Made by a program: the position numbers and the translations under genes. The notes under the pieces were generated by a model, which saw only the letters and a program-made list of their open reading frames with translations, ran no database searches and was not told the origin of the DNA. A stretch of 64,000 nucleotides of DNA from Bacteroidales bacterium (GTDB lineage Bacteria > Bacteroidota > Bacteroidia > Bacteroidales > VadinHA17), in contig JBFYPG010000100.1 of NCBI GenBank assembly GCA_041303415.1, positions 3,825-67,824 of the forward strand. Direction: 5' to 3'. Positions 3,433 to 60,490 of this stretch are shown piece after piece; within the stretch, counting starts at the first letter, position 1; the number at the start of each line of letters is the position of its first letter.

Positions 3433-6315
3433 ATGAAGAAAAAACCTGTCAGGCCGGAGGATTATGGGAATAAAACGTCTGAAAGCCAAAAGCTTATACA
3501 GATGAACGCGGCTCTTGTGGAAAGTGAGCTCAGCTACAGAAGCATATTCGAACATGCGACAGATGGCATTTATATACAGGACAGGAATGGCGTTTTTCTG
3601 GATGTGAATCCGGCAGCGATAAGGATGTACGGCTATAAGAGGGAGGAGATAGTAGGATTCACGCCTGAAAAGCTTGGAGCTCCCGGGAGGAATGATCTTG
3701 ACAAAACCCTTGAGCATGTAAAGAAGGCATTTGCCGGAGAACCTCAGAGATTTGAGTGGTGGGGGCGACGCAAAAACGGAGAGATATTTCCCAAGGAGAT
3801 CGTGTTGAACAGGGGTATGTACTTTGGGCAGGAGGTGGTATTTGCCATGTCAAGGGATATTACTGAACGGTTTCAGGTGCTCGCCGCCCTTAAGGAAAGT
3901 GAAGATAAATACAGATCCCTTGCTGACCAGATACCTGTGGGAGTATACAGAACTGCTACTGACGGACAGCTTTTATATTCCAATCCCGCTCTTGTTAAAA
4001 TGCTGAATTACAGTTCGGCAGAAGAGCTCATCAGGCTTAACGTTCATCAGCTCTATGCCGATCCTGCTGACCGCGGTAATCAGATCGATAAATCGAAAAC
4101 AGTGACGGCAGTGATAACAAGCGAATTTCAGCTGAAAAAGAAGTCCGGAGAGCTGATATGGGTCAGGGACAACAGCCGCCTGATTTTCGATAAAAACGGC
4201 AATCCGCTCTATTTCGATGGAATACTTGAGGATATAACAGAACGCAAACACACTGCAAATGCTATAAAGGAGAGCGAAGCCAACCTGAAAGCGATAATTG
4301 AAAACACACTGGAAAGTATCTGGTCGGTGGACAGAAACTATGAGATTCAGTATATAAATGAAGTATTTGCTAAAGCGTTCAATGCAACATTCGGTGTGCA
4401 GCTTAAAAAAGGTGTTAATATTGTTGAATCTCTCCCTGCCAGCATAAGACAGATATGGAAGGAGAGGTATGAAAGAACCTTCAATAATGAACATTTTGTT
4501 TTTGAAGACCGGATTGACATTAATGACACATCAGTATACATTGAGGTATCGATGAACCCTATTGTTATTGATGGAAACGTTGTGGGAGCTTCATTATACG
4601 GAAAGGATATCACTGAGAAGAAAACAGCGCAGCTGCGCCTTGAGTATCTGTCCGACATGAGAAAGCTTCTTATCGACCTCTCTATCGGCTTTATAAATTT
4701 GCCTCTGGATCGGATAGAGGAAGAGGTCAGCAGGTCGCTGGTAAAAATTGGGGAGTTTGTTAGCGCCGACAGGGCATATGTCTTTGAATATGACTTTAAA
4801 AATAATACCGGCACGAACACTTTTGAATGGTGCAGGGAAGAAATAGAGCCACAGATAAATAAATTACGGTTAATACCGCTTGAAGGATTTTCCGAGTGGA
4901 TTGCAATACATAATAGGGGTGATACCATAAAGGTGGAGGATGCTGATTTATTGACTGATGAAAATCTGCGAAACTTCATTAAAGATCAGAGTACAATATC
5001 CGTCCTTACTATTCCTCTGCTTGAGGATGGCGAATGTACGGGTTTTGTTGGATTCGACTCGGTAAGACAAAGGCATGTCTATACAGAATTTGAAGAACAG
5101 CTGCTGAAAGTATATGCCCAGTCACTTGTCAATGTCCGGGAAAGACTCAGAAAAGAACAGCGGCTGATCGTAGCCAAGGAAAAAGCCGAAGAGAGCGATC
5201 GTCTGAAATCTTCATTCCTTGCCAATATGAGCCACGAGATACGCACCCCGATGAACGGGATCATAGGTTTCCTGGATCTGCTTAAGGAACCTGATCTCTC
5301 AGAGGAGAACAAGATCGCCTATATCGATATAGTGACACAGAGCAGCCACCGGCTGCTCGATACGATAAATGACATTATCGAGATTTCGAAAATAGAAACG
5401 GGTGAACTAAAGCTCCATATGTCTCCGATTAATATCCCTGATATGATGTCATATTATTACGGTTTCTTCAAACAGCAGGCCGGTCAGAAAGGATTGAAAT
5501 ACTTCATTTCGAACAACCTCCCGCCTGAAATCAGGGCAGTGCAGACCGACAGGAACAAACTGGAAAGCATAATCTCAAATCTCATCAAAAATGCCGTAAA
5601 ATTCACTGACTCAGGCTCAGTGGAATTCGGATGTTATGGTGAAGCGGATAACCTCGTGTTCTTTGTCAGGGATACAGGGATCGGCATTCCCGAAGAAAGA
5701 CTTAATTCCGTCTTTGATCGTTTTGTACAGGGCGATATGTCGTTCTCAAGGCCCCAGGAGGGTTCAGGGCTTGGCCTTTCGATAGTAAAGGCGTATGTCG
5801 ACCTGCTGAAGGGAAAGATATGGGTTCAGTCAGAGCCGGGTAAAGGAAGCACATTCACTTTTTCCATTCCTTATTCCGCTGCAGATGAGGATAATGCTGA
5901 TGCCGCACCTCATGACCCTGTACATAGTATCTCCGGGAAAACCCTTGCCATCCTCATAGCAGAGGATGACTATGCAAGCTATCTTTACCTTGAGAGTCTT
6001 TTGGCCGGACCCGGGATCTCTTTCCTTCATACCTCCAACGGCAATGATGCGGTGAGATCTGTACGCGAACATCCCGAATTGTCCTTTGTCCTTATGGATA
6101 TCAGGATGCCAGGTATGAACGGGCTGGAGGCGACAAGGCAGATACGCCGGTTCAACAAAAAGATTCCTATCATAGCACAGACAGCTTATGCCCTTTCCGG
6201 CGACAGGGAATCTGCAATTTCGGCAGGATGCAGCGATTATATTTCCAAACCTATCAACCGGAATGAACTGAACAAGATAATTTCACAATACGTTGAACAT
6301 AGAAAAACAATTTAA
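3433..6315 (+). CDS. Hybrid sensor histidine kinase/response regulator with multiple PAS domains and a GAF-like domain
   Basis: Repeated PAS-type segments (..DITERK.. endings). H-box [11 protein letters not shown]. ATPase boxes [27 protein letters not shown]-terminal receiver [19 protein letters not shown]. Confidence 0.9.
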
Positions 6316-12209: not shown

Positions 12210-12251
12210 ATGATTAAGTTTTAAATTTCCTTTCGGTTCAGATTTACAGGT

Positions 12252-12353
12252 CGCCTGACGCCTGACGCCTGACGCCTGACGCCTGACGCCTGACGCCTGA
12301 CGCCTGACGCCTGACGCCTGACGCCTGACGCCTGACGCCTGACGCCTGACGCC
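12252..12353. repeat. Tandem heptamer array (CGCCTGA) about 14.5 units
   Basis: Perfect 7-nt periodicity read directly. Lies between the RraA-like stop (12359) and the enolase-family ATG (12209). Confidence 0.95.
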
Positions 12354-18302: not shown

Positions 18303-19601
18303 ATGCAAACAAAGTATTACAGGTATCTGCTATTTGTTACACTCGCTATTTTTGCCGGTGCCATATCCGCATTTCTTTTCAGGAAAACTGAGCTTGGCGG
18401 TATGATGATGATCGCGGGCTTCATCGCCCTTGCCTGGGGGGTAAGAGGCTATCCTGCGCTTAAAGGATTTTCATATACGCTATGGATATTTACTGCAGTT
18501 ACAGCTTCGATGTTCTTCCCGCAGTATTTCACATCAATAGGCAAATTCCAGCTTAAGAGCATGATAGTTCCCCTGCTTCAGGTAATCATGTTCGGGATGG
18601 GTTCCCAGATGAGCTTTGAGGATTTCAAGGGTGTGATCAAAATGCCAAAAGGTGTTCTGATTGGGATATTTTCACAGTTTACTATCATGCCGCTGGTCGG
18701 CTTAACGATCGCCCGGATGTTCAATTTTCCTCCTGAGATAGCGGCAGGGATCATCCTGATAGGATGCGTACCTAGCGGACTTGCATCCAATGTAATGTCA
18801 TTCCTTGCAAAGGCTAACCTTGCCCTGGCCGTAACCATCAGCGCAGTTACAACACTGCTCTCGCCATTCATAACACCGGTACTTATGAAATGGATCGGAG
18901 GCCAGTTCATAGAGGTAGATTTCTGGAGCATGATGCTTGATATCCTGAATATGATAATCCTTCCGATAATTGCCGGATTCATGTTCAATCTTTTTGCACG
19001 GAAAAGTGCCGGACGATCATCATTCATAATCCAGCTTATTGTTTATCCTGTGATAATCCTGATGACAACCCTTGTGTTTGCCAGGGCACGGAGTGCCGGA
19101 ACAGGCGAATTTTTTATCCAGTTCCTCAAGTCGCTTGCATGGTTCTATTTCCTTCCGATGGCCGGAGGGGTTTTAATGTCGCGAAACCTCAGGGGCAACA
19201 ACAGGATAATGGAAAGAGTGCTTTCATTTGTCTCAATGGCTGGTATTGCAGTGATAGTCACCATCATAACTGCTTCAGGCAGGGAGAGCCTGCTTCAGGT
19301 GGGGGCTCTGCTTATGGTGACCAGCCTGATTCATAACCTTTCCGGATATACACTCGGGTATACCATCTCCTGGCTCTTCGGGATGCCTGAAAGAGACCGG
19401 CGCACAATAGCGTTCGAAGTCGGCATGCAGAACGGTGGTCTCGCTTCCGGCCTTGCCTTGCAGATGGGGAAAATTGCAACCGTGGGTCTTGCTCCTGCGA
19501 TCTTTGGACCTCTCATGAACATTACAGGATCCGTACTCGCAAATTGGTGGAGAGGTCATGAACCAGCAACCAGCAACCAGCAACCAGCAACAAGTAACTG
19601 A
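18303..19601 (+). CDS. Bile acid:sodium symporter (BASS/SBF-like) family transporter
   Basis: Trimmed to the first ATG (18303). Polytopic, with GCVPSGLASNVMSFLAKANLALAVT and FEVGMQNGGLA motifs. The last 13 codons (EPATSNQQPATSN) are encoded by the AACCAGC heptamer array. Confidence 0.75.
   Translation: MQTKYYRYLLFVTLAIFAGAISAFLFRKTELGGMMMIAGFIALAWGVRGYPALKGFSYTLWIFTAVTASMFFPQYFTSIGKFQLKSMIVPLLQVIMFGMGSQMSFEDFKGVIKMPKGVLIGIFSQFTIMPLVGLTIARMFNFPPEIAAGIILIGCVPSGLASNVMSFLAKANLALAVTISAVTTLLSPFITPVLMKWIGGQFIEVDFWSMMLDILNMIILPIIAGFMFNLFARKSAGRSSFIIQLIVYPVIILMTTLVFARARSAGTGEFFIQFLKSLAWFYFLPMAGGVLMSRNLRGNNRIMERVLSFVSMAGIAVIVTIITASGRESLLQVGALLMVTSLIHNLSGYTLGYTISWLFGMPERDRRTIAFEVGMQNGGLASGLALQMGKIATVGLAPAIFGPLMNITGSVLANWWRGHEPATSNQQPATSN
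19561..19598 (+). repeat. Tandem heptamer array (AACCAGC)x4 plus AACAAGTAAC
   Basis: Read directly. It encodes the C-terminal tail of the BASS transporter and ends 11 nt before the kdgK ATG. Confidence 0.95.
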
Positions 19602-25307: not shown

Positions 25308-25350
25308 TACAGTCACTGCGAGTCCCGAGTACTCGGGACGAAGCAATCTT
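25308..25350 (-). promoter_or_regulatory. Conserved-flank hairpin element, copy 1 (upstream of the Zn-ADH gene)
   Basis: The minus strand reads AAGATTGCTTC-GTCCCGAGTACTCGGGAC-TCGCAGTGACTGTA, 22 nt upstream of ATG 25286. Confidence 0.6.
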
Positions 25351-25384
25351 AAACCCACCCCAAGCCCCTCCCAGGAGGGGATTT

Positions 25385-31993: not shown

Positions 31994-32005
31994 CATATTT
32001 TATAT

Positions 32006-32047
32006 TACTGTCATTGCGATCCCGCCGCAGGCGGGAGAAGCAATCTT
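32006..32047 (-). promoter_or_regulatory. Conserved-flank hairpin element, copy 2 (E2-E1 intercistronic)
   Basis: The minus strand reads AAGATTGCTTC-TCCCGCCTGCGGCGGGA-TCGCAATGACAGTA. The flanks match copy 1 while the hairpin stem sequence differs but stays paired. Confidence 0.6.
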
Positions 32048-32056
32048 GATAACTAT

Positions 32057-33289
32057 CTATAGATCGTCATAGGTAAAATTCTCAATCTGCTCCTTAATCT
32101 CCCTCAGGAACATCGTGGCCGGTCCTCCGTCAATTGCCCTGTGGTCGTATGTAAGAGAGAGGCCTATGTATGGCACGAAGCCGAAAATATTATTGCCCAG
32201 GTCTGCCGGACGGTGCACTATTGTACAGACTCCGAGAATAGCAACCTGCGGCAGGTTTATTACAGGAGTGAACATCTCAACGCCATAATTACCGAGATTT
32301 GAAACTGTGAATGAAGCGGCAGTGCTCTGTATCAGCTCGGGATTTATGTTTCCTTTCCTGCATGATTCTGCAGCCGATTTCAGTTCCTTCGACAGACGGG
32401 TTAGATCCATGTCCCCTGCATTTTTAATCGCCGGAACCATGAGACCCCTGTGAGTATCAACGGCAATACCAAGGTGAACCTGGCTGAAGGTCCTTATTGA
32501 TTCTCCGAGGAAATGGCTGTTTGCTTCGGGGAATTTATGAAGCGCCCTTATTACGCACCAGCAGATCATGTCATTAAGGGTGATATCCTGTTTTATGCTT
32601 CCAGATGCCACTCCCTCCTTGATTTTTTTTCTTGCTTCAAGGAGACGGCGGACATCCGCGCTCATGTGGTGGGTAAGCTGTGCCGCGTTCTGGAGTGAGG
32701 AGTGCATCGCTTTTGCTATCATCCGCCGCACGTTTGTGATCGGATGGTCGGTGAATTCCTGTCCTGAAGGGATGTAAGCTTGTCTGGACTGAGACGTATC
32801 AGAAGCTTCTTTTTCAATATCGCTTAAAATTATCCTGCCGTTTGGTCCTGATCCCCGGAGGTCTGAATAATCTATCCCTTTTTCTTGTGCCAGAACTCTG
32901 GCACGCGGTGATATCCTGATTTTAGAGTCAACTGATAAAATGGAGCCTGTTGTGACCGCCACTTCTCTTTCAGCAGGCTCTGCAGGTATTTCTGCAGACA
33001 ATGTTTCTTTTACGGCTGATTTACCGGGGAAAAACTCACTTATCTCTTCACCCTGTTTTCCGATCACTGCAACATTAATAAGGACAGGCACTTCCGCTCC
33101 CTCATCAAAAAATGTATCAAGCAGGATGCCGTCGGCCGGAGATTCCATCTCAAAAGCTGCCTTGTCAGTCTCGTATGAGAAGAGAAGGTCGCCGGCAGAG
33201 ATCTTATCTCCTTTGTTTTTGTACCACCGGGTGATGATGCAGGTCTCTACTGACTGACCCTGTTTAGGCATGATTACTGGTGTTGCCAT
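32057..33289 (-). CDS. Dihydrolipoamide acyltransferase (E2)
   Basis: Lipoyl domain with ETDKAAFEMESP, subunit-binding segment (ISPRARVLAQEKGID), catalytic domain with DHRAIDG. Confidence 0.85.
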   Translation of the reverse strand: MATPVIMPKQGQSVETCIITRWYKNKGDKISAGDLLFSYETDKAAFEMESPADGILLDTFFDEGAEVPVLINVAVIGKQGEEISEFFPGKSAVKETLSAEIPAEPAEREVAVTTGSILSVDSKIRISPRARVLAQEKGIDYSDLRGSGPNGRIILSDIEKEASDTSQSRQAYIPSGQEFTDHPITNVRRMIAKAMHSSLQNAAQLTHHMSADVRRLLEARKKIKEGVASGSIKQDITLNDMICWCVIRALHKFPEANSHFLGESIRTFSQVHLGIAVDTHRGLMVPAIKNAGDMDLTRLSKELKSAAESCRKGNINPELIQSTAASFTVSNLGNYGVEMFTPVINLPQVAILGVCTIVHRPADLGNNIFGFVPYIGLSLTYDHRAIDGGPATMFLREIKEQIENFTYDDL

Positions 33290-33290
33290 G

Positions 33291-33380
33291 TTGGTTGCTG
33301 GTTACTGGTTGCTGGTTGCTGGTTACTGGTTGCTGGTTGCTTGTTGCTGGTTGCTTGTTGCTTGTTGTTGGTTACTTGTT
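33291..33380 (-). repeat. Tandem heptamer array, about 13 units of AACCAGC/AACAAGC/AGTAACC as read on the minus strand
   Basis: The plus strand reads GGTTGCT/GGTTACT/GCTTGTT units. The array ends 1 nt from the E2 start codon (33289). Confidence 0.95.
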
Positions 33381-36279: not shown

Positions 36280-36424
36280 AATTCAATTAATTAATGTGAA
36301 ATAAATAACAAGCAAAGGTCATGTTTTTTTTTCTAAACAAAAAATTTTATGGCATAATATATTGACTCGTAACTACTTTTTAATGCCTTTTGGATGGGGG
36401 AGGGAAGGTGTAATTAAGAGAATA

Positions 36425-36452
36425 TTATTGGTTATTGGTTATTAGTTATTAG
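36425..36452 (-). repeat. Heptamer array (AATAACT/AATAACC family, minus-strand sense), 4 units
   Basis: The plus strand reads (TTATTGG)2(TTATTAG)2 and abuts the four-helix-bundle gene stop. Inverted copy of 38663-38701. Confidence 0.9.
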
Positions 36453-36460
36453 TGGATTTG

Positions 36461-36826
36461 TTACAGGGAGCCGGTTCTGGACTTGATTGAGCTGATGAAA
36501 CTGTTAAGTTTAATGTGCTCTTTTTCAATTAATACCAGCATTCTTTTAATGTTATCTGGATTTGCGAGAGACCTTCTCTTTTGTAAAACTGACCAATGCT
36601 TCAGTTCCAGCAGCGATCCCCTGGAGTTATAGTAGAATTTGACAGAATCTTTGTAATGGTACCTGCCGAAACCTTCGGCAATATTTGCACCGACGGAATC
36701 TGCAGCATCCAGAAACTGACTTCCCTGGCCAAATCTGAACTCTTTTGGCAATTCATTATAGATATCCCATGCCAAATCACTAATCTCCAGGGCAATCCTG
36801 TAAACCTCAAGATCTTCTATAATCAT
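36461..36826 (-). CDS. Four-helix-bundle protein (23S rRNA intervening-sequence protein family)
   Basis: 121 aa. LEVYRIALEISDLAWDIY..QFLDAADSVGANIAEGFGRYHYKD..FYYNSRGSLLEL is the family signature. Confidence 0.75.
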   Translation of the reverse strand: MIIEDLEVYRIALEISDLAWDIYNELPKEFRFGQGSQFLDAADSVGANIAEGFGRYHYKDSVKFYYNSRGSLLELKHWSVLQKRRSLANPDNIKRMLVLIEKEHIKLNSFISSIKSRTGSL

Positions 36827-36961
36827 TTTCAGCGAGACTAGCTACTCCAAATGTAAGCTATTTTCCGAAGTTCTGAAACAATATTTTTATTTAATTTATA
36901 CTAAGTAGGTTATATGATTCGATCAAGAACCTTGACAACCCCCCATAATTTACCGGTGTTA

Positions 36962-37933
36962 TTAGCTTGCGTTCTTAATTTCTTTGTCTTTTATATACTT
37001 TTTTAACTCATCGGGTTTGAGAACTTTTTCATATTGACTTTTTATTTTACCTAGTTTGCAGTCTTCGGTTATATTTTTAAGAAAATCTCTGAAATCAGAA
37101 TTTCCATTTGCCAGTCTGTTTGCGGTATCCCAATCTATCTCTGGATTAATCTTGGATGGGAATAGTATTTCACTTTCATATACATTTTCAGCATCTATTT
37201 TTATTAATCCAATACCAAAAGCATTGTTTAGCCTTCTTATTTCGTCAATAAACGCCGAATCATCATCAAGATTAAGAGTGACAAGATATCCTTCGTTTGC
37301 CCAACTTGAATTTGAGACAGCTTGAAAGAAAGATTGCCTTAGATTATTGAAGTTCAGGTTGATCTTTAACTCAAAAGAAAAGAGTTTGATAGAACTTATT
37401 TTGAGGTGATCCTGTATTTCCAATATTTCTGACGCGTAATCCTTAAATGGGAAGAAAACACCAACCAGGTCTGGATGGAGCCATTCATTTTGACCTTTGG
37501 TTGATTTAGATGAATTCTCATGATATATTGTTTTGACATTTGCTTTAAAATGAGTAGCTACAGACGCAAAAGCTGCAACTAGTTGGTGTAGATCGCGCTC
37601 ACAGAATTTCTTAAATTCAGATTTCTCTTTTTTTGCCTGTTCTGTTTCCTTCAGTTTCTGTATCTTATTTAAGTCAAGCTTTGGAGCAAGTTGACGTAAG
37701 AAAAATTGAGCAGGTCTTTCACTTGTTTGGACTACTGTAGATTCATCGCCGTTAGTGTTAATATCTGTGTAAAAATAAGCTGCAATTGTTGCCCAGGGAG
37801 TTTTACCTTCTGTGGTAAGATCTCCGATAGTACCAAGTTGATTAGCTTTTTCCCATACTTCTTTTGCTGACAAAGGAGTTCCGACTCTCTCGAAAGTCCG
37901 TATGATTACATCCCAAAATGTTGTTTTAGCCAT
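36962..37933 (-). CDS. HARE-HTH domain protein with C-terminal PD-(D/E)xK-like nuclease-fold region (HrgA/COG2958-like)
   Basis: The N-terminal 80 aa fit the HARE-HTH pattern (FWDVIIRTFERVGTPLSAKEVWEKA..GKTPWATIAAYFYTDI..RPAQFFL). The C-terminal part carries ERDLH .. HPDLVGV .. FSFELK .. QAVSNS, arranged like an E/PD/ExK/Q nuclease core. AT-rich codon usage on inspection. Confidence 0.5.
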   Translation of the reverse strand: MAKTTFWDVIIRTFERVGTPLSAKEVWEKANQLGTIGDLTTEGKTPWATIAAYFYTDINTNGDESTVVQTSERPAQFFLRQLAPKLDLNKIQKLKETEQAKKEKSEFKKFCERDLHQLVAAFASVATHFKANVKTIYHENSSKSTKGQNEWLHPDLVGVFFPFKDYASEILEIQDHLKISSIKLFSFELKINLNFNNLRQSFFQAVSNSSWANEGYLVTLNLDDDSAFIDEIRRLNNAFGIGLIKIDAENVYESEILFPSKINPEIDWDTANRLANGNSDFRDFLKNITEDCKLGKIKSQYEKVLKPDELKKYIKDKEIKNAS

Positions 37934-38041
37934 CTTATGATTATTTAATGATTAAAGGTACAACTTGTTTTAAATTTTGACCATAAAAGGAAAAATGTAA
38001 CAAATATTACAGGTGCCACTGAAAATTAGAAGATATGAGTC

Positions 38042-38521
38042 CTATTTATGAGCAAGATTTGAATAAAAAGTAAAATGAAAATAATGCCTTTTATTAGATT
38101 CCCATATCTCTCCGATTAATCCTTGTTCGCATTTATCCACTGGGATTGATTTACTTCCATTCAAATCCTTTAAAGAGCCAAAATATATTGAAAATGACCT
38201 GTTGTCAAATTGTATTGCCATCCAATAGGCACGAGCATCGTATTTCTTCTCAGCGTACAATGCTTTTAAATATGCATCAGATCCGAGATTGTATCTTGAG
38301 TTCAATTTTCCATTATTCTGGTATTTGTTTCTGGCTTTTACACTGATAACATATCTTAGTCCGTCTTTTTCACATTCTATATCAGCAAATGTTTCGTTAA
38401 TCTTATCGTCATTGAGATTTCTAATCCTATCGAATTTTTTATCTACCAATGCCTTTAATGCAAATAATTCTCCTAGTTCTCCAAGAGATTTTTTCCTTGC
38501 TGCTTCTTTTTTATTTTTCAT
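38042..38521 (-). CDS. Small YraN/Holliday-junction-resolvase-like (restriction endonuclease fold) protein
   Basis: 159 aa. GELGELFALKALV..(N)..ADIECEKDGLRYVISVKARN parallels the YraN pattern GxxGExxA...D-I-D...V-E-V-K-x-R, with S replacing E. The ~80-aa C-terminal extension is unassigned. Confidence 0.4.
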   Translation of the reverse strand: MKNKKEAARKKSLGELGELFALKALVDKKFDRIRNLNDDKINETFADIECEKDGLRYVISVKARNKYQNNGKLNSRYNLGSDAYLKALYAEKKYDARAYWMAIQFDNRSFSIYFGSLKDLNGSKSIPVDKCEQGLIGEIWESNKRHYFHFTFYSNLAHK

Positions 38522-38662
38522 ATACTGTATTCACCTTCTTGTGATTTAGTGGTGTTTTAATGTTGGTAATAGGGTGAAGAATTCTGTAGAATGAGGAATA
38601 TTCTAGAAAACTTATTGTATGAGGGCGAATCTGTCTCGCAGTGCCTTTGAACACTAACTCTC

Positions 38663-38701
38663 AATAACTAATAACTAATAACCAATAACCAATAACCAAT
38701 A
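38663..38701 (+). repeat. Heptamer array (AATAACT)2(AATAACC)3
   Basis: Read directly. Lies between the NYN-protein stop (38707) and the small nuclease gene. Confidence 0.9.
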
Positions 38702-39480: not shown

Positions 39481-39518
39481 AAAACTCAATTTTGCCGAAA
39501 GGTACGATAATTAATTAA

Positions 39519-39549
39519 GTTGCTTGTTGCTTGTTGCTAGTTGCTTGTT
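39519..39549 (-). repeat. Heptamer array, AACAAGC-type units as read on the minus strand
   Basis: The plus strand reads GTTGCTTGTTGCTTGTTGCTAGTTGCTTGTT. It sits 38 nt upstream of the NYN-protein ATG (39480). Confidence 0.9.
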
Positions 39550-39563
39550 AATACAAAGACTCA

Positions 39564-39593
39564 AAATCTGAAATCTGAAATCGGAAATCCGAA
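39564..39593. repeat. Heptamer array AAATCTG/AAATCGG/AAATCCG, about 4 units
   Basis: Read directly in the NYN/THX divergent intergenic region. Confidence 0.85.
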
Positions 39594-39661
39594 TTAAAAA
39601 TAACCCACCCCCAGATCAGGTGTAATACTTCAGAATAATAGTAACAATTTTTTAATGTAAC

Positions 39662-39738
39662 AACCCCCTTTCTTATTTCCCCCAAGGGGGAAAGGATTAA
39701 AAGCTCCTGCCCCCTTGGGGGAAGGATGGGAAGGGGGT
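39662..39738 (+). repeat. G5/C5 double-hairpin element, copy C (77 nt)
   Basis: AACCCCCTTTCTTATTTCCCCCAAGGGGGAAAGGATTAAAAGCTCCTGCCCCCTTGGGGGAAGGATGGGAAGGGGGT. Lies in the divergent NYN/THX region. Confidence 0.9.
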
Positions 39739-39831
39739 CATATGAATAGAAAATAAATGAAATCAAAGCTGTTTAAAAAGAATCAATTTGTTACTAAAAT
39801 TATGAAGAAATACACAGGGAGGGGAGACAGT

Positions 39832-39863
39832 AGCAAGCAACCAGCAACCAGGAACCAGCAACC
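39832..39863 (+). repeat. Heptamer array, AACCAGC-type units
   Basis: AGCAAGCAACCAGCAACCAGGAACCAGCAACC is the inverted complement of 39519-39549 and lies upstream of the THX promoter. Confidence 0.9.
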
Positions 39864-39897
39864 TTCTCCACTGATATTTTACTATCCCGGTGCCTGG

Positions 39898-39930
39898 TTT
39901 GATTAATACTAAAGAATTTTTTTAACTTTG
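39898..39930 (+). promoter_or_regulatory. Bacteroidota-type promoter of the THX-fusion gene
   Basis: TTTG (39898-39901), 21 nt spacer, TAACTTTG (39923-39930). About 45 nt upstream of the ATG. Confidence 0.65.
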
Positions 39931-39975: not shown

Positions 39976-40572
39976 ATGGGAAAAGGTGATAAAAAGTCAA
40001 GAAGGGGAAAGATAATTCTTGGAACATATGGCGTGAGACGCCCCAGGAAGAAAAAAAATAAACCTGCTGTCAAGCTTGTGACTCCTGCTCCTGCACTTGA
40101 ACTTAAGGAAAAGAAATTCATTAAGGAGAAGAAGGAGACAAAGCCTGTAAAAGAGGTTAAGGAAGTTGTTGAAGCAGCTGAGGTGAAGGAAGTCGCTGCT
40201 GCTCAGGAACCGAAGCATGCAAAGGAAGTTCATGAAGTGAAGGAGGTTAAAGAGCACAAGCCGGCCAGAGAAGAGAAACATGCAAAAGCTGCCACTTCTG
40301 CAAAGGAACCGAAAGAAGCAAAAGCTGAAAAACCCGCTAAGGAAGCCAAAAAGGAAAAGGTTGTGAAGGAAACCAAAAAAGCCCCGGCAGAAAAGAAAGA
40401 GGCCAGGCTTGCTAAAGCCGAAAAAGCTGAAAAGGAAGCCGTTAAAGAAGCAAAACCATCTGCACCAAAAAAACCAGCTGCATCAAAAAAACCAGCTGTA
40501 CCAAAAAAGCCTGCTGAGAAAAAGCCTGCTGTTAAAAAACCGTCAGCACCTAAGAAAGCCACAAAGAAATAG
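39976..40572 (+). CDS. 30S ribosomal protein THX (bTHX) fused to a ~170-aa K/E/A/P-rich histone-H1-like tail
   Basis: N-terminus MGKGDKKSRRGKIILGTYGVRRPRKKK matches the bTHX peptide. It is followed by KEVKEV-type and KKPA(A/V)(S/P)KK-type repeats up to the stop. A consensus promoter lies upstream (39898-39930). Confidence 0.65.
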   Translation: MGKGDKKSRRGKIILGTYGVRRPRKKKNKPAVKLVTPAPALELKEKKFIKEKKETKPVKEVKEVVEAAEVKEVAAAQEPKHAKEVHEVKEVKEHKPAREEKHAKAATSAKEPKEAKAEKPAKEAKKEKVVKETKKAPAEKKEARLAKAEKAEKEAVKEAKPSAPKKPAASKKPAVPKKPAEKKPAVKKPSAPKKATKK

Positions 40573-40573
40573 G

Positions 40574-40634
40574 CGATTTATGATATGCGATATGCGATTT
40601 CACAAGGATATCGCATATCGGATATCGCATATCG
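40574..40634. terminator. Long imperfect hairpin of GATATGC / GCATATC words between convergent genes
   Basis: ATATGCGAT-TTCACAAGG-ATCGCATAT forms a 9-bp core stem with further repeat-unit pairing. It lies between the THX-fusion stop (40572) and the ThDP-enzyme stop (40643). No clear U-tract. Confidence 0.5.
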
Positions 40635-45181: not shown

Positions 45182-46099
45182 ATGATTGTCCACCTGAGGA
45201 ACAGCGATATAGACACTGCAAAGTGGGATAAATGCGTGAGCGGCACGCCCGGTGTAAAACCTTATGGTTATTCATGGTACCTGAATATAATGTCCCCCGG
45301 ATGGGAGGCGCTTGTTGAGGACGATTACTCCTCGGTATTCCCTCTTCCCGCATACAGGAAATATGGTATAGACTATCTGTCAACTCCGGCTTTCACTCAA
45401 AGGCTGGGACTCTTCTCATCATCAGCAGATTTAAAGACAAAAATCAATGCTTTCCTGGAAAACATCCCTGACCGCTTCAGACTGGCAGATCTCTGCATCA
45501 GTCAGGAGGCTGTCAGCAATGAATTCGTTATTATTCCCAGGGTGAATTATGAGCTGGATATGTCACACGAATATGACCATCTGTATGAAAGTTTCTCGCA
45601 TCACTGCAAGCGCAACATTGATGTGTCAGCCAGGGAGAAACATGACCTGGTTTCAGATATCCGTCCTGAAGAACTTGTTGCACTGTTCAGGAAAAACAGG
45701 GGCCATGAGATAAGGGAGCTCAGCGATGTTCATTACAACCGGCTTATTGAACTCATTGGTCATTGCGTGAGTAACAGCAAGGGAAGGTTAGTCGGGGTAA
45801 GGGATGCCGGTAGAAAGCTGATATCCGGAATATTCCTGGTTGAAAGTGACGGCAACAGGATAATGCTCCTGGTAGTCAATACATCTCAGAGCCGCGAAAA
45901 GAGACTGGGGTATTATGCTGTTAATGAATTGATAAAAGAGTCAGCAGGCACAAAGACCATCCTTGATTTTGAAGGCTCCTCCATTCCTTCTGTCGCCTCA
46001 TTTATGCAGTCGTTCGGAAGCTGTAACGTCCCGTATTACCGGATATACCGCAACAATCTGCCATGGATAATCAAAGGCGTAAAGGCGTTAAGGCATTAA
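45182..46099 (+). CDS. Uncharacterised protein, possibly a FemAB/GNAT-like acyltransferase fold
   Basis: 305 aa, soluble. Only a weak resemblance (WDKCV..YGYSWYLNIMSPGWEALV). The last 9 codons (KGVKALRH) lie inside the octamer repeat array. Confidence 0.35.
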   Translation: MIVHLRNSDIDTAKWDKCVSGTPGVKPYGYSWYLNIMSPGWEALVEDDYSSVFPLPAYRKYGIDYLSTPAFTQRLGLFSSSADLKTKINAFLENIPDRFRLADLCISQEAVSNEFVIIPRVNYELDMSHEYDHLYESFSHHCKRNIDVSAREKHDLVSDIRPEELVALFRKNRGHEIRELSDVHYNRLIELIGHCVSNSKGRLVGVRDAGRKLISGIFLVESDGNRIMLLVVNTSQSREKRLGYYAVNELIKESAGTKTILDFEGSSIPSVASFMQSFGSCNVPYYRIYRNNLPWIIKGVKALRH

Positions 46100-46231
46100 G
46101 GCATTAAGGCATTAAGGCATTAAGGCATTAAGGCATTAAGGCATTAAGGCATTAGGGCAATAAGGCAATAGAGCATTAAGGCTTTAGGGTATTGGGGTCT
46201 TAACGCCTTAACGCCTTATCGCCTTAAAGCC
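46073..46231. repeat. Octamer array followed by its own inverted complement
   Basis: The array is 2x AAAGGCGT, 8x perfect TAAGGCAT and about 6 degenerate units (46073-46200). The inverted part is CTTAACGCCTTAACGCCTTATCGCCTTAAAGCC (46199-46231). It spans the gap between convergent genes and overlaps both stop codons, so it may act as a bidirectional terminator-like hairpin. Confidence 0.9.
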
Positions 46232-46940
46232 TTTCAACATCTATCTCCTGGTCGAGGTTGACCTCGGTCAGCTTTTCGTTTTCGCATTTGACCGTGCGGG
46301 CCGGGAATTTTTTCAGGATGGTATAGTTGTGTGTGGCGACAACAACAGCCCTCCCTGTCTTGCTGATATCAACCAGCAGTTTTATGATGCCTTCGGATGT
46401 TTCAGGATCAAGGTTGCCTGTGGGCTCATCAGCCAGGATAATGTCAGGATCGTTCAGCAAAGCTCTCCCGATGACGACACGCTGCTGCTCACCTCCCGAA
46501 AGCTGATGTGGCATTTTATAGCCTTTCAGTCCCAATCCTACTTTTTCAAGCACCTCGCCGATCCTGGTACTTATCTCGTTCCTGTTTTTCCACCCGGTTG
46601 CCTTCAGTACAAATTCAAGATTGTCATGCACCGACCTGTCGGTAAGAAGCTGGAAATCCTGGAAGACAATTCCCAGTTTTCTCCGGAGCATCGGAATATC
46701 TTTGGTTCTCAGCTTTGACAGGTTGTATCCGGCAACGATACCGGTACCCTCTTTCAGCGGGATCTGCGCGTTCAATGTTTTTATCAGGCTGGTTTTCCCG
46801 CTTCCGACCCTCCCGACGAGGTACATGAATTCACCTTTTCTTACGCTCAGGTTCACACTCGAAAGGACAAGATGATCATGCTGCCAGATAAGGCATTCTT
46901 TCAGTTCAATAATCACGTCAAGAGGAAGGATTTCCTGCAT
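46224..46940 (-). CDS. ftsE: ABC-type ATPase, FtsE-like
   Basis: Walker [10 protein letters not shown], signature LSGGEQQR, Walker [13 protein letters not shown], size 238 aa. No FtsX-like permease is adjacent, so the FtsE assignment is tentative. Confidence 0.65.
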
Positions 46941-58288: not shown

Positions 58289-58307
58289 ATTCAGAAAAAC
58301 CTTTCTA

Positions 58308-58419
58308 AACCACGGAGTTACACTGGTCTTCGCTTCGCTCAGACATACACGGAGTTACACTGTCTTTATTCATTTTAAACCGTGTAACTCGTTTTTAAAC
58401 TCCGTGTAACACCGTGGTT
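58308..58419. repeat. Long imperfect palindromic element of the CAC-N-GAG word family
   Basis: Termini AACCACGG / CCGTGGTT. Internal words GAGTTACACTG (x2) and CTCCGTGTAAC. Lies between the S9 peptidase stop and the rlmN start. Confidence 0.9.
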
Positions 58420-58434
58420 AAGAGTTCAGATAAA

Positions 58435-59523
58435 TTAATTAAATCCATAACCAGCTTTTTGGAGATCTTTGACCGACTTGAAAGGTTTGGGCGGCGTCAG
58501 GTATTTGTTCAGGTGGTTGTATATCTTCATCCTTATCTCCTTGGCTTCCATGTAATCCATCCTGTCGAATGAGTGTCCTCCCGGCATATTCTGGAAAATC
58601 TCGTATGTGAAGTTCTGCTTCCCTTCAGTCTTGAGCGATTTGATCAGATGCTCCACTTCAAGGACATTCACATCTTCATCATTTGTGTTTGTGTGAATCA
58701 GAAGAGGCGTGTTCTGATATTTATTCACCTGCCATGCAGGGGATCTTTTACGGTATTCCGCAACATTCTGATCGGCCGGTTTGCCTATTGCAGCCTGTTC
58801 TGAAAAGAGATCACGATATTCCTGATCCTTGTATCCCATGCGTGCTATCAGGTCGCTGACAGGTACTCCGGTGAATGCCACTTTATAATTCTGAGGGTAT
58901 TCAAAAATATTGAATAGTGCAATATAGCCTCCATGGCTCCATCCGATGATTCCAACCCTATCTTTATCGACTATCGCATAATTGTCTATCATATACTGGC
59001 GGCTGGCATCAACATCCTGCACCTCAAGCCCTCCGTAGTCGATCCTGTTATACATGGCTGCTCCATAACCTGTTGATCCGCGGTATTCGGCCGCAGTGAC
59101 TATATAGCCCTGTGATACCATCTCCCTGATAATGTGCGTGTAGTAGGTGTCAAAATTGGCATGCACCCCGCCATGAGGAAATACCAGCAGGGGATATTTC
59201 TTTGAGGGATCAGCATCTTTCGGGATAAAGATATAGGACCAGTATTTCAAAGGGTTCCCTGCTCCCTGTCCCGTCGGATTTCTCTCAACTGCCGGTGGAG
59301 GACCGGTCATGTATACCTTATCAATATATGCGATATCGCCAACCTTGTTGTACCACTGAACATCATCGATCTTCTTCTCAAGCACATCAAACCTGTGGCC
59401 AAGGTTGTCAATATCTGCATTTACCCTTTTTACAGCTTCCATCAGTTCGGTCGTCCCCGGCTGACTGTAAGAAGCCAGAAACAACCCGGAGATAAATAAT
59501 GACAAGAAAACCAGCTTTTTCAT
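58435..59523 (-). CDS. Secreted alpha/beta-hydrolase, prolyl-oligopeptidase (S9)-like
   Basis: Signal peptide. Nucleophile elbow GWSHGGY, later D and H (GGHSF) candidates. Confidence 0.7.
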   Translation of the reverse strand: MKKLVFLSLFISGLFLASYSQPGTTELMEAVKRVNADIDNLGHRFDVLEKKIDDVQWYNKVGDIAYIDKVYMTGPPPAVERNPTGQGAGNPLKYWSYIFIPKDADPSKKYPLLVFPHGGVHANFDTYYTHIIREMVSQGYIVTAAEYRGSTGYGAAMYNRIDYGGLEVQDVDASRQYMIDNYAIVDKDRVGIIGWSHGGYIALFNIFEYPQNYKVAFTGVPVSDLIARMGYKDQEYRDLFSEQAAIGKPADQNVAEYRKRSPAWQVNKYQNTPLLIHTNTNDEDVNVLEVEHLIKSLKTEGKQNFTYEIFQNMPGGHSFDRMDYMEAKEIRMKIYNHLNKYLTPPKPFKSVKDLQKAGYGFN

Positions 59524-59555: not shown

Positions 59556-59626
59556 AATTAACTAATAACTAATAACTAATAACTAATAACTAATAACTAA
59601 TAACCAATAACCAATTACTAATAACC
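59556..59626 (+). repeat. Heptamer array of about 10 units: (AATAACT)5(AATAACC)2 AATTACT AATAACC
   Basis: Same family and same ACT-then-ACC unit order as 38663-38701. Upstream of the S9 peptidase start and merges into the palindromic element at 59623. Confidence 0.9.
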
Positions 59627-59715
59627 ACTGAGTTACACTGAGTTTAACGGAGTTGCACGGTTTTGTTGCTTTTAAGCTGTGAAACTCGTATTTAACTCCG
59701 TGTCACTCAGTGGTT
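59623..59715. repeat. Long imperfect palindromic element of the CAC-N-GAG word family
   Basis: Termini AACCACTGAG / CTCAGTGGTT (10 bp perfect). Internal GAGTTACACTGAG, CGGAGTTGCACGG, CTCCGTGTCAC. Overlaps the dapF stop by 2 nt. Confidence 0.9.
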
Positions 59716-60490
59716 AGATATCTATTTCCCCCTCGAAAACAAAGGTTGCCGGTCCGGTGAGCCAGACATTGGTGACTTTCCCGTCCTTTACCTTAAAATC
59801 AACTTCCAGGTCACCACCTCGTGCCTTCACTCTGACAGGTGCAGTGTCAAAATGTCCTTTCAGGACTGAAGCAATGGCAGATGCTGTGACCCCCGTTCCG
59901 CATGCAAGTGTCTCCTCTTCAACCCCGCGTTCAAATGTGCGGAGATACAATCCTTCCTTACTGAGCTCCACAAAATTCACGTTTGTGCCTCCCGGTTGAA
60001 AGAGCGGAGACCATCTCAGTTTCCTGCCTTCAGCATTTACGTCCATATCATCAATTCCGTTCGTAAACACTACATAATGAGGCGATCCGGTATTTATAAA
60101 GTAGTTTCCTTCAATGATTTTAAATTCATTTATGTCAGCCATCTGCAGACGAACAATATCATCACTTACCTCGGCTTCATGAATGCCGTCAAATGCCATG
60201 AACCGCTGCTTTTTACCTGCAATTTCATGTTTGAGTGTGAAATGAGCGGTGCATCTTCCTCCGTTGCCGCACATCGATCCGATCTTCCCGTCGGAATTGA
60301 AGTATTTCATCTCGAAATCCGCGCCCGGGTGATCTGAAATCAGGATGAGTCCGTCAGCCCCTATGCCAAATCGGCGGTCGCATAATCTGTTAATGAGAGC
60401 TTGACCGGAGGGATTAATTAGACCCTTGCGATTGTCTATGATAATGAAATCATTACCTGCGCCCTGGTATTTGTTAAACGTTATTATCAT
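59714..60490 (-). CDS. dapF: Diaminopimelate epimerase
   Basis: Trimmed to ATG 60490 (MIITFNKYQGAGNDFIIID). Catalytic cysteines in SMCGNGGRC and LACGTG. Confidence 0.9.
   Translation of the reverse strand: MIITFNKYQGAGNDFIIIDNRKGLINPSGQALINRLCDRRFGIGADGLILISDHPGADFEMKYFNSDGKIGSMCGNGGRCTAHFTLKHEIAGKKQRFMAFDGIHEAEVSDDIVRLQMADINEFKIIEGNYFINTGSPHYVVFTNGIDDMDVNAEGRKLRWSPLFQPGGTNVNFVELSKEGLYLRTFERGVEEETLACGTGVTASAIASVLKGHFDTAPVRVKARGGDLEVDFKVKDGKVTNVWLTGPATFVFEGEIDI

Follow-up and report, generated by a model that had tools for sequence, protein, structure and literature searches.

Intervening sequences (IVS) in the 23S rRNA genes of Leptospira, Coxiella burnetii, and Xanthomonas contain an open reading frame (ORF) of the family PF05635 (S23p), which is enclosed by terminal inverted repeats of ~28-29 bp. 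The IVS of Coxiella has been described as 'selfish': it is 428 nt long, carries an S23p (PF05635) ORF, and ends in a 28-bp terminal stem that is cut by RNase III; it occurs sporadically, has a GC content of ~36% compared with ~42.5% for the genome, and its mobility is unknown (PMC4990558). PF05635 resembles the Avd fold of diversity-generating retroelements (PMC10053308). Intergenic heptamer repeats have been documented in Bacteroidetes, cyanobacteria, and Beggiatoaceae, and for the TAACTGA type, which forms direct repeats near start codons, translational regulation has been proposed (PMC4679880). Two puzzles meet at the locus analyzed here, namely the role of the S23p/four-helix-bundle (4HB) proteins of IVS together with the mobility of these elements, and the reason why tandem heptamers fill the intergenic DNA of some bacteria, notably cyanobacteria and some Bacteroidota. 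The locus is situated in a stretch of 64,000 nt (referred to as the window) of contig JBFYPG010000100.1 from a Bacteroidales bacterium of the VadinHA17 lineage. It consists of three minus-strand genes for a 4HB protein, a 323-aa HARE-HTH protein (HrgA), and a 159-aa protein (p159), which lie between two inverted heptamer arrays and, together with them, between a NYN and an RRM gene. This arrangement is termed the islet. An initial annotation of the same DNA had viewed it as a horizontally acquired nuclease cassette with the arrays as its boundaries. Intergenic heptamer repeats in these phyla, S23p-bearing IVS, and the HARE-HTH and HrgA families are already known. A literature search for a tie between 4HB/S23p genes and heptamer repeats returned nothing relevant, which is not proof of novelty, and we know of no description of stand-alone 4HB genes in inverted hypervariable heptamer arrays, be they invertible or enclosing selfish genes.

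The initial annotation had given the positions and sequences of the two arrays, and both were found at these coordinates. The left array is composed of two TTATTGG and two TTATTAG units (36425-36452) with an extra T at 36453, and the right array of two AATAACT and three AATAACC units followed by AATA (38663-38701). The two unit variants follow in identical internal order in both arrays. A repeat search of the window returned an inverted repeat of 29 nt with 100% complementarity (36425-36453 / 38667-38695), and the predicted RNA duplex of the two arrays had an energy of -43.5 kcal/mol. When up to two mismatches were allowed, TTATTRGTTATTRG gave 19 matches compared with 2.1 expected, an approximately ninefold excess. 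The gaps between genes in the islet measured 108-185 nt, in agreement with the 100-190 nt estimated earlier. The coordinates of all features are collected in Table 1.

Table 1. Features of the islet and related repeats in the window
Feature	Coordinates	Strand	Basis or remark
Whole inserted segment, NYN-RRM spacer	36383..38701		Absent from L044 (blastn) and from empty-site sequences
3' (downstream) heptamer array	36425..36453	-	Inverted copy of the 5' array; onset 8 nt past the 4HB stop codon
4HB protein gene (23S rRNA IVS protein/S23p/Avd-like)	36461..36826	-	PF05635 2.6e-22, TIGR02436 1.8e-20; owner of the array pair
4HB leader/promoter region	36827..36884	-	TACATTTGG and conserved GTCTCGCTGA just 5' of the ATG
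323-aa 'HrgA protein' family gene, N-terminal HARE-HTH and C-terminal domain; AT-rich passenger	36962..37933	-	Pfam 6e-10
p159, solitary 159-aa gene, probably small PD-(D/E)xK/Hjc-like nuclease; AT-rich passenger	38042..38521	-	Motif and weak Foldseek match
5' (upstream) heptamer array	38663..38701	-	Gene strand (TTATTGG)3(TTATTAG)2TTATT; onset 5 nt past the NYN stop codon
Second inverted array pair	39519..39863		GTTGCTT 39519-39549, AGCAACC 39834-39863; hairpin-rich, non-coding, no 4HB gene
Third array of the TTATTRG unit family, solitary	59557..59625	+	(AATAACT)6(AATAACC)2; no 4HB gene near

The arrays are best assigned to the 4HB gene. The protein encoded next to the 3' array is a member of the S23p family, as evident from scores of 79.5 bits for PF05635 (cut-off 33.8) and 73.1 bits for TIGR02436 (cut-off 24). 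Its gene is present in a single copy, and no other 4HB gene or remnant was found in the window; jackhmmer searches of the HrgA and NYN loci described below (~0.9 Mb) also returned none. At 4HB loci elsewhere (loci outside the window carry the prefix L), inverted arrays were found repeatedly. In L130, with a 4HB protein 76% identical, (TTATTGG)13 lies upstream and (AATAACT)n downstream. In L131-133 (71% identity), (TTATTGG)8-11 directly adjoins the PFL gene upstream, beginning at its stop codon, with (CCAATCA)n on the downstream side. L134, also with 71% identity and at a different chromosomal site, has (TTATTGG)8 on the upstream side and its inverted array at a distance of ~335 nt on the downstream side. 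The (TTATTGG)8-13 arrays of these loci are positioned 60-130 nt upstream of the 4HB gene, and in L130, L131, and L134 the 4HB gene is likewise preceded by the GTCTCGCTGA element of the leader. The TTATTGG unit has thus accompanied this 4HB subfamily to three different locations in the chromosome. More distant homologues (L152/153, L154, and L155-164; 53-65% identity) are flanked by inverted arrays of other short units. On cyanobacterial plasmids, 4HB genes with 26-36% identity are tightly hugged by inverted heptamers in Nostoc, Calothrix, and Geminocystis, the units being AGGAGTC (Nostoc punctiforme pNPUN01/02, with loci L169 and L174), TAGGGTG (Calothrix), GGGAACA (Nostoc edaphicum), and GGGAAAA (Geminocystis); such heptamers are lacking in Pseudanabaena. 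The copy number of the arrays differs among samples L131, L132, and L133 as well as among L155, L156, L157, and L159. In contig L135, which stems from the same population as the window and has a 98% identical 4HB, homology to the window starts at the 4HB leader, and the sequences diverge ~58 nt upstream of the ATG.

These brackets were evaluated with an ungapped flank-complementarity score, for which 46 genes of the window served as controls. The sample of 4HB loci was small, with 12 loci in addition to that of the window (13 in total). Scores of 13.5-59.5 were obtained for 10 of the 12 other loci, compared with a median of 8.75 and a 95th percentile of 11.4 for the controls, among which the single outlier was caused by a different palindromic repeat. 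In the window, the score was 29.0 when the three-gene islet was taken as a unit, and 9.0 for the 4HB gene by itself. Predicted RNA duplex energies of the flanks were far below those of shuffled controls for all seven compact modules (7/7). Brackets are therefore recurrent at 4HB genes in Bacteroidota and cyanobacteria. The flanks of L130 and L131 are orthologous (PFL, 79.6% DNA identity), and the 4HB segment lies between its arrays in opposite orientation in the two, which suggests an inversion in situ or possibly a re-insertion.

The similarity of this design to that of the 23S rRNA IVS is considerable. In both cases, terminal inverted repeats surround a PF05635 ORF; in the islet they form a perfect repeat of 29 nt compared with the ~28 bp of the IVS, and in both cases the element is sporadic and absent from close relatives. 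To exclude every known mobile element for the islet, as in the initial annotation, was consequently too strong a claim, given the close parallel to the S23p-encoding IVS element (PMC4990558). Like the Coxiella IVS, the islet is low in GC overall, although its 4HB gene is itself host-like in composition (GC 0.407, GC3 0.459). In contrast to IVS, the islet is intergenic between two protein genes rather than inserted into helix 25/45 of 23S rRNA, and no rRNA was found in the window with Rfam; its stems are tandem heptamer arrays of variable copy number; it has a promoter-like leader of its own; and its stem encloses three genes, two of which are extra. The protein also belongs to the same superfamily as Avd, a pentameric four-helix bundle (PF05635/cd16375; PMC10053308), but unlike Avd of diversity-generating retroelements it is a stand-alone copy. 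No reverse transcriptase was called within +/-10 kb, and the template and variable repeats (TR/VR) of such retroelements were not specifically searched. The transposase or integrase to be expected between the inverted repeats of an insertion sequence or transposon is missing. As regards repeats, the arrays of the window resemble those termed STRR, TAACTGA, and LSSR (Mrazek et al.) in being 7-nt tandem, intergenic, near start or stop codons, and variable in copy number. The units TAACTAA and TAACCAA of the window are one base off TAACTGA (PMC4679880). The islet differs from the TAACTGA repeats in its inverted pair around a 4HB gene, and the terms 'four helix' and '23S' do not occur in the text of PMC4679880.

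The insertion itself became apparent from a comparison with relatives, which comprised 80 loci from a metagenome scan with the NYN protein. In 17 relatives (NYN identity 72-92%), the spacer from NYN to RRM is gene-free and 99-345 nt long, and RRM is followed by a cold-shock (CSD) gene. The islet was absent between NYN and RRM in all 20 relatives having both genes (20/20). Three of these 20 carry a different gene of 237-238 aa in the spacer (L061 6569-7285, L067 3954-4667, and L069 6815-7531), and the site is therefore considered a recurrent insertion hot spot. When the closest relative, L044, was aligned with the window by blastn, the two were collinear except for 36383-38701 and 39481-39898, which were present only in the window. 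Both heptamer arrays fall within the segment missing from L044, and the conserved promoter/leader of RRM picks up ~30-40 nt past the left array. Comparison of the junctions with the empty site revealed no convincing target-site duplication. Because 36383-38701 is absent from relatives with NYN next to RRM, the segment is a recently acquired insertion.

Base composition pointed in the same direction. The GC content of the islet was 0.344, compared with 0.454 +/- 0.028 over all 2277-nt windows (rank 5 of 1235). GC3 was 0.275 for HrgA and 0.263 for p159 and 0.42-0.56 for neighboring genes, such that the AT-richness of the two nuclease-like genes, previously judged by eye, agrees with computed values. 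The horizontal acquisition postulated in the initial annotation is thus borne out by foreign composition and by the absence of the segment between the same flanks in relatives in which NYN, RRM, and CSD remain adjacent. Likewise, no methyltransferase, integrase, or recombinase was present among the genes called within +/-10 kb of the islet, as had been noted. The window yielded no Rfam family, including rRNA, and no tRNA was found. Scanning with the defense models of PADLOC-DB 2.0 gave no family (0) matching any of the three islet proteins.

The two genes between the 5' array and the 4HB leader were characterized individually. A role in reading modified DNA has been proposed for HARE-HTH (PMC11037411), and in Helicobacter pylori, hrgA is a gene of unknown function that replaces a restriction gene (PMC2588503). 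The PF05066 domain of the 323-aa protein occupies residues 5-71 and scored 39.8 bits compared with a cut-off of 25.9. A total of 6031 homologues was found, some of them named 'HrgA protein' by NCBI, with identities of 66-93% in Bacteroidales, Chitinophagales, Cytophagales, Flavobacteriia, Ignavibacteria, Deferribacterales, and Kapabacteria. At 50% identity, the family of the C-terminal domain falls into 1154 clusters. This domain is preceded in most cases by one or two HARE-HTH domains; in one homologue it is fused to the SeqA C-terminal domain (SeqA_C). In a lenient scan it had no Pfam match, a profile search gave no meaningful PDB sequence match, and the AlphaFold2 (AF2) model of HrgA, with a pLDDT of 36, was unusable for the fold. 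P154, D155, E188, and K190 of this domain are invariant in 22 aligned sequences and form the motif PD...E188-L-K190, so that to call HrgA nuclease-like appears reasonable from its residues. The protein is akin to Type IV enzymes (Mrr, DpnI-like) in its reader-type HTH, its PD-ExK motif, and the lack of a cognate methyltransferase (PMC11037411), but unlike known winged helix-turn-helix (wHTH) nucleases it has a C-terminal domain that matches no Pfam or PDB family. It might act as a solitary modification-sensing (Type IV-like) endonuclease. Its likeness to HrgA of H. pylori is by the NCBI name of close homologues only, and it differs from the hpyIII locus of that organism, where a methyltransferase adjoins.

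The 40 other HrgA loci that were inspected show a similar composition of the gene, with an ORF GC content of 0.30-0.37 in 38 of 40 and flanking GC of 0.27-0.54. In the 15 long loci among them, the neighbors were varied: housekeeping genes predominated, genes of the IS200, HNH, RhuM, or AbiEi-like type appeared now and then, and a methyltransferase was beside HrgA in none; an adjacent cognate methyltransferase, as in Type II restriction-modification systems, is thus missing at these loci as well as in the window. No heptamer array was present within 1.5 kb of HrgA in 37 of the 40 loci. The remaining ones (L014, L033, and L039) have short arrays nearby that are unrelated to those of the islet, and arrays of the TTATTGG type did not occur at any of the 40. 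Another repeat was noticed at HrgA itself. In 7 of 33 HrgA loci (L004-L006, L009, L020, L021, and L039), a perfect 10-nt inverted repeat brackets the ORF; the 5' arm precedes the ATG by 42-54 nt, and the 3' arm overlaps with the stop codon. It exists in two co-varying versions, GTTATAGGGC/GCCCTATAAC and GTTAGCTTGC/GCAAGCTAAC. Some six further loci have 7-8-nt versions, and the HrgA gene of the window retains the 3' arm only (36962-36970). This co-varying repeat suggests that HrgA itself is a stem-bracketed cassette.

For p159, 849 homologues were found, with ~80% identity and one of them from a metagenome-assembled genome of Margulisbacteria. Residues E15/E18, D47, and S60-V-K62 are invariant. 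Pfam and NCBIfam gave no match even at E <= 10, and a profile search returned no meaningful PDB sequence match. In Foldseek, a model with a pLDDT of 59.8 matched Hjc structures best (2wiw/2wcw; E 0.11-0.13, probability 0.96, TM 0.43/0.54). The protein is close to Hjc/YraN-type nucleases in size and has the GExGE helix and the D...(S)VK motif in common with them, with Hjc on top in Foldseek; it differs from them in that no family HMM matches it and in the low confidence of the model (pLDDT 59.8) and of the Foldseek match (E 0.11). On the basis of motif and model, p159 is probably a small PD-(D/E)xK/Hjc-like nuclease, and the term 'nuclease-like' seems reasonable from its sequence. The label 'YraN-like' given to it in the initial annotation was not upheld, there being no HMM match to YraN/UPF0102.

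HrgA and p159 do not constitute a conserved pair or system but are unrelated solitary passengers. This conclusion was drawn because neither p159 nor a 4HB gene was near HrgA in any of the 40 other HrgA loci (0/40), and because p159 elsewhere is found in unrelated contexts, three of four of which lack a nuclease partner of the HrgA kind. At the loci inspected, the paired nuclease system suggested at the outset had a counterpart in L001-L003 only. These three assemblies show the identical p159-HrgA(-4HB) arrangement; they represent the same population, and their proteins are 100% identical. Conserved non-coding DNA common to the inner spacers of the islet and other HrgA or p159 loci was not detected. 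Scans of IMG/VR for relatives of p159, HrgA, and the 4HB protein were essentially empty, and it is deduced that these are not phage genes. Both the HrgA and the p159 family are widespread, extremely conserved, and solitary, and annotation of a two-gene defense system from this locus is unwarranted. As a separate observation, L124 (4001-5503) carries a p159 homologue (86% identity) 112 nt upstream of a restriction-type gene with Mrr_N and Mrr_cat domains. This order mirrors that of p159 and HrgA in the window and is the sole hint of a functional link between p159 and wHTH-nuclease genes.

From these results, it appears reasonably probable that the islet consists of three independently mobile genes of the selfish type that have assembled in the variable NYN-RRM hot spot, the arrays being the terminal inverted repeats of the 4HB module. 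The design of this module would be that of a 23S rRNA IVS, i.e. an S23p ORF in a stem of ~28 bp, but situated outside rRNA and with stems made of hypervariable tandem heptamers. HrgA and p159, the latter a putative small Hjc/YraN-like nuclease, would be nested between the 5' array of the module and the 4HB promoter/leader. In a read-through RNA, the arrays could pair to a duplex of ~29-40 bp, a potential substrate of RNase III. By analogy with rRNA IVS, cleavage would excise the insert and insulate the expression of NYN and RRM. At the DNA level, the arrays might promote slippage and inversion.

Several observations weigh against this explanation. None of the 12 other 4HB modules has cargo between array and gene (0/12), and in the window the 5' array is ~1.8 kb away from the 4HB gene; as the other modules have no cargo, the nested-passenger step is one that we infer, no intermediate having been observed. 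Relatives without the islet often have other short arrays right after the NYN stop codon, so that the 5' array might belong to the host at this position. The bracket is not universal: it lacked significance at 2 of the 12 loci (L169 marginal, L171 none). Conversely, the array of the TTATTGG type at 59557-59625 has no 4HB gene, the second insertion (39481-39898) lies in inverted arrays without one, and 16 IMG/VR contigs with (TTATTGG)>=4 contain mostly single arrays and no 4HB gene. Thus, it is the inverted bracket and not the array alone that is diagnostic.

Among the other explanations, one remains alive even though we regard it as rather unlikely: the arrays could be a general target or scar of insertion, with foreign DNA of any kind, be it 4HB genes, nucleases, or non-coding segments, preferentially entering the loops of terminator-like inverted-array hairpins, the arms of which then bracket the insert. 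Short-loop hairpins of inverted arrays indeed exist in the window at 40582-40634 and 46074-46233, inverted GTTGCTT arrays surround the non-coding insert at 39481-39898, which contains no 4HB gene, arrays are found right at stop codons, the place of terminators, insertion hot spots occur on both sides of NYN, and the arrays after the NYN stop codon in islet-free relatives would fit as well. However, the empty sites of L044 and L046 have no hairpin, TTATTGG accompanies the 4HB subfamily at three sites in different genomes as if borne by the module, and heptamer arrays are missing within 1.5 kb of HrgA at 37 of 40 other loci.

It is unlikely, too, that the 4HB gene and its inverted heptamer arrays form one self-propagating unit across phyla, in which the 4HB pentamer would recognize its own repeats as DNA or as an RNA stem and promote their expansion, inversion, and spread. 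If this were true, orphan arrays (STRR, TAACTGA-type repeats, and the arrays and hairpins of the window) would be footprints or satellite sites, and the modules could be landing pads that capture selfish genes such as the two nucleases.

We consider it quite improbable that the arrays are generic filler, i.e. slippage-prone intergenic repeats of the LSSR/STRR type of which two similar ones flank the islet by coincidence. Period-7 tandem arrays are a genome-wide trait of this genome. A strict detector found 13 of them in 64 kb, compared with 0-3 for each of the remaining periods between 4 and 12; Tandem Repeats Finder (TRF) found more. They comprise several unit families and are intergenic or 1-40 nt from a gene end, except for 6079-6093 and possibly 19561-19591; intergenic 7-nt tandem units over-represented in this way are the hallmark of STRR/LSSR/TAACTGA-type repeats. 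A third TTATTRG array at 59557, the other arrays just past the NYN stop codon in relatives, and the record of heptamer repeats in Bacteroidetes, cyanobacteria, and Beggiatoaceae (PMC4679880) are in line with filler. Coincidence is opposed by the perfect inverted repeat of 29 nt with its identical order of unit variants, by the location of both arrays inside the segment absent from L044, and by the bracket, which is present at 10 of 12 independent loci of 4HB genes from two phyla but at only 1 of 46 controls, the latter due to a different palindromic repeat. The initial annotation had reckoned with the possibility that the islet genes are of ordinary composition and syntenic in relatives and that the arrays are filler. 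Arrays did prove common genome-wide, yet the bracket recurs at 4HB genes; the islet is AT-rich and absent from relatives.

Finally, that the arrays are the termini of a mobile defense/nuclease cassette, in which the HARE-HTH and 159-aa nucleases would cooperate with the 4HB protein as an accessory, is very improbable and largely refuted by the lack of co-occurrence: the array positions coincide with the edges of the inserted AT-rich segment, the gene order is identical in L001-L003, and the p159 homologue of L124 precedes an Mrr-type wHTH and PD-ExK gene, but none of the 40 HrgA loci has p159, 4HB, or TTATTGG-type arrays, three of four other p159 contexts lack such a partner, PADLOC gave no match, L001-L003 are a single population with identical proteins, and the arrays recur around 4HB genes free of nucleases and are rare near HrgA.

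In this sample, non-rRNA 4HB genes of two phyla usually lie within inverted hypervariable heptamer arrays, and the enclosed segment appears to be invertible and able to hold selfish genes. Should this apply genome-wide, a protein partner of the heptamer repeats would be at hand, and the IVS design would become a general, testable type of element. The plasmids pNPUN01 and pNPUN02 of Nostoc punctiforme offer a culturable test bed.

Additional repeats were noted in the window. The non-coding segment 39481-39898, absent from L044, contains the hairpins CCCCCAAGGGGG / CCCCCTTGGGGG; neither a 4HB remnant nor an Rfam match was found in it. It lies on the other side of NYN from the islet, where the spacer between NYN and a divergent lysine-rich gene measures between 83 nt and 2.8 kb in relatives. 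A lysine/alanine/glutamate-rich low-complexity protein of 198 aa is encoded at 39976-40572 by internally repetitive DNA (repeats of 18 to 39 nt), and its N terminus is conserved in relatives. The short-loop hairpins at 40582-40634 and 46074-46233 are each formed by two inverted tandem arrays between convergent genes and are terminator-like. Their units are the 7-mers GATATGC/GCATATC and the 8-mers AAGGCATT (14 copies) / CTTAACGC (4 copies), respectively, and the position of the GATATGC/GCATATC hairpin is conserved in L044. GC-rich hairpin motifs ending in ...GAAGCAATC (e.g. GCGAGTCCCGAGTACTCGGGACGAAGCAATC) are present beside tandem arrays at 25320-25384 and 31994-32040, and similar motifs occur in the spacers of relatives L056 and L057. 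Dispersed palindromic repeats similar to repetitive extragenic palindromic (REP) elements, CACGGAGTTACACTG / CACTGAGTTACACTGAG, flank the gene at 58435-59523 (58300-58420 and 59622-59716), and the same type of repeat was seen in the NYN-RRM spacer of L058. Long heptamer arrays abut start codons at 12250-12353, 33289-33373, and 19561-19591. Examples are (CGCCTGA)14.6 near the start of a minus-strand gene and (TGGTTGC)11.7 directly upstream of the ATG, at 33289, of an E2 acyltransferase gene. The TGGTTGC family has four copies in the window in both orientations, and these start-abutting arrays resemble the start-codon-proximal TAACTGA repeats of MacGregor 2015.

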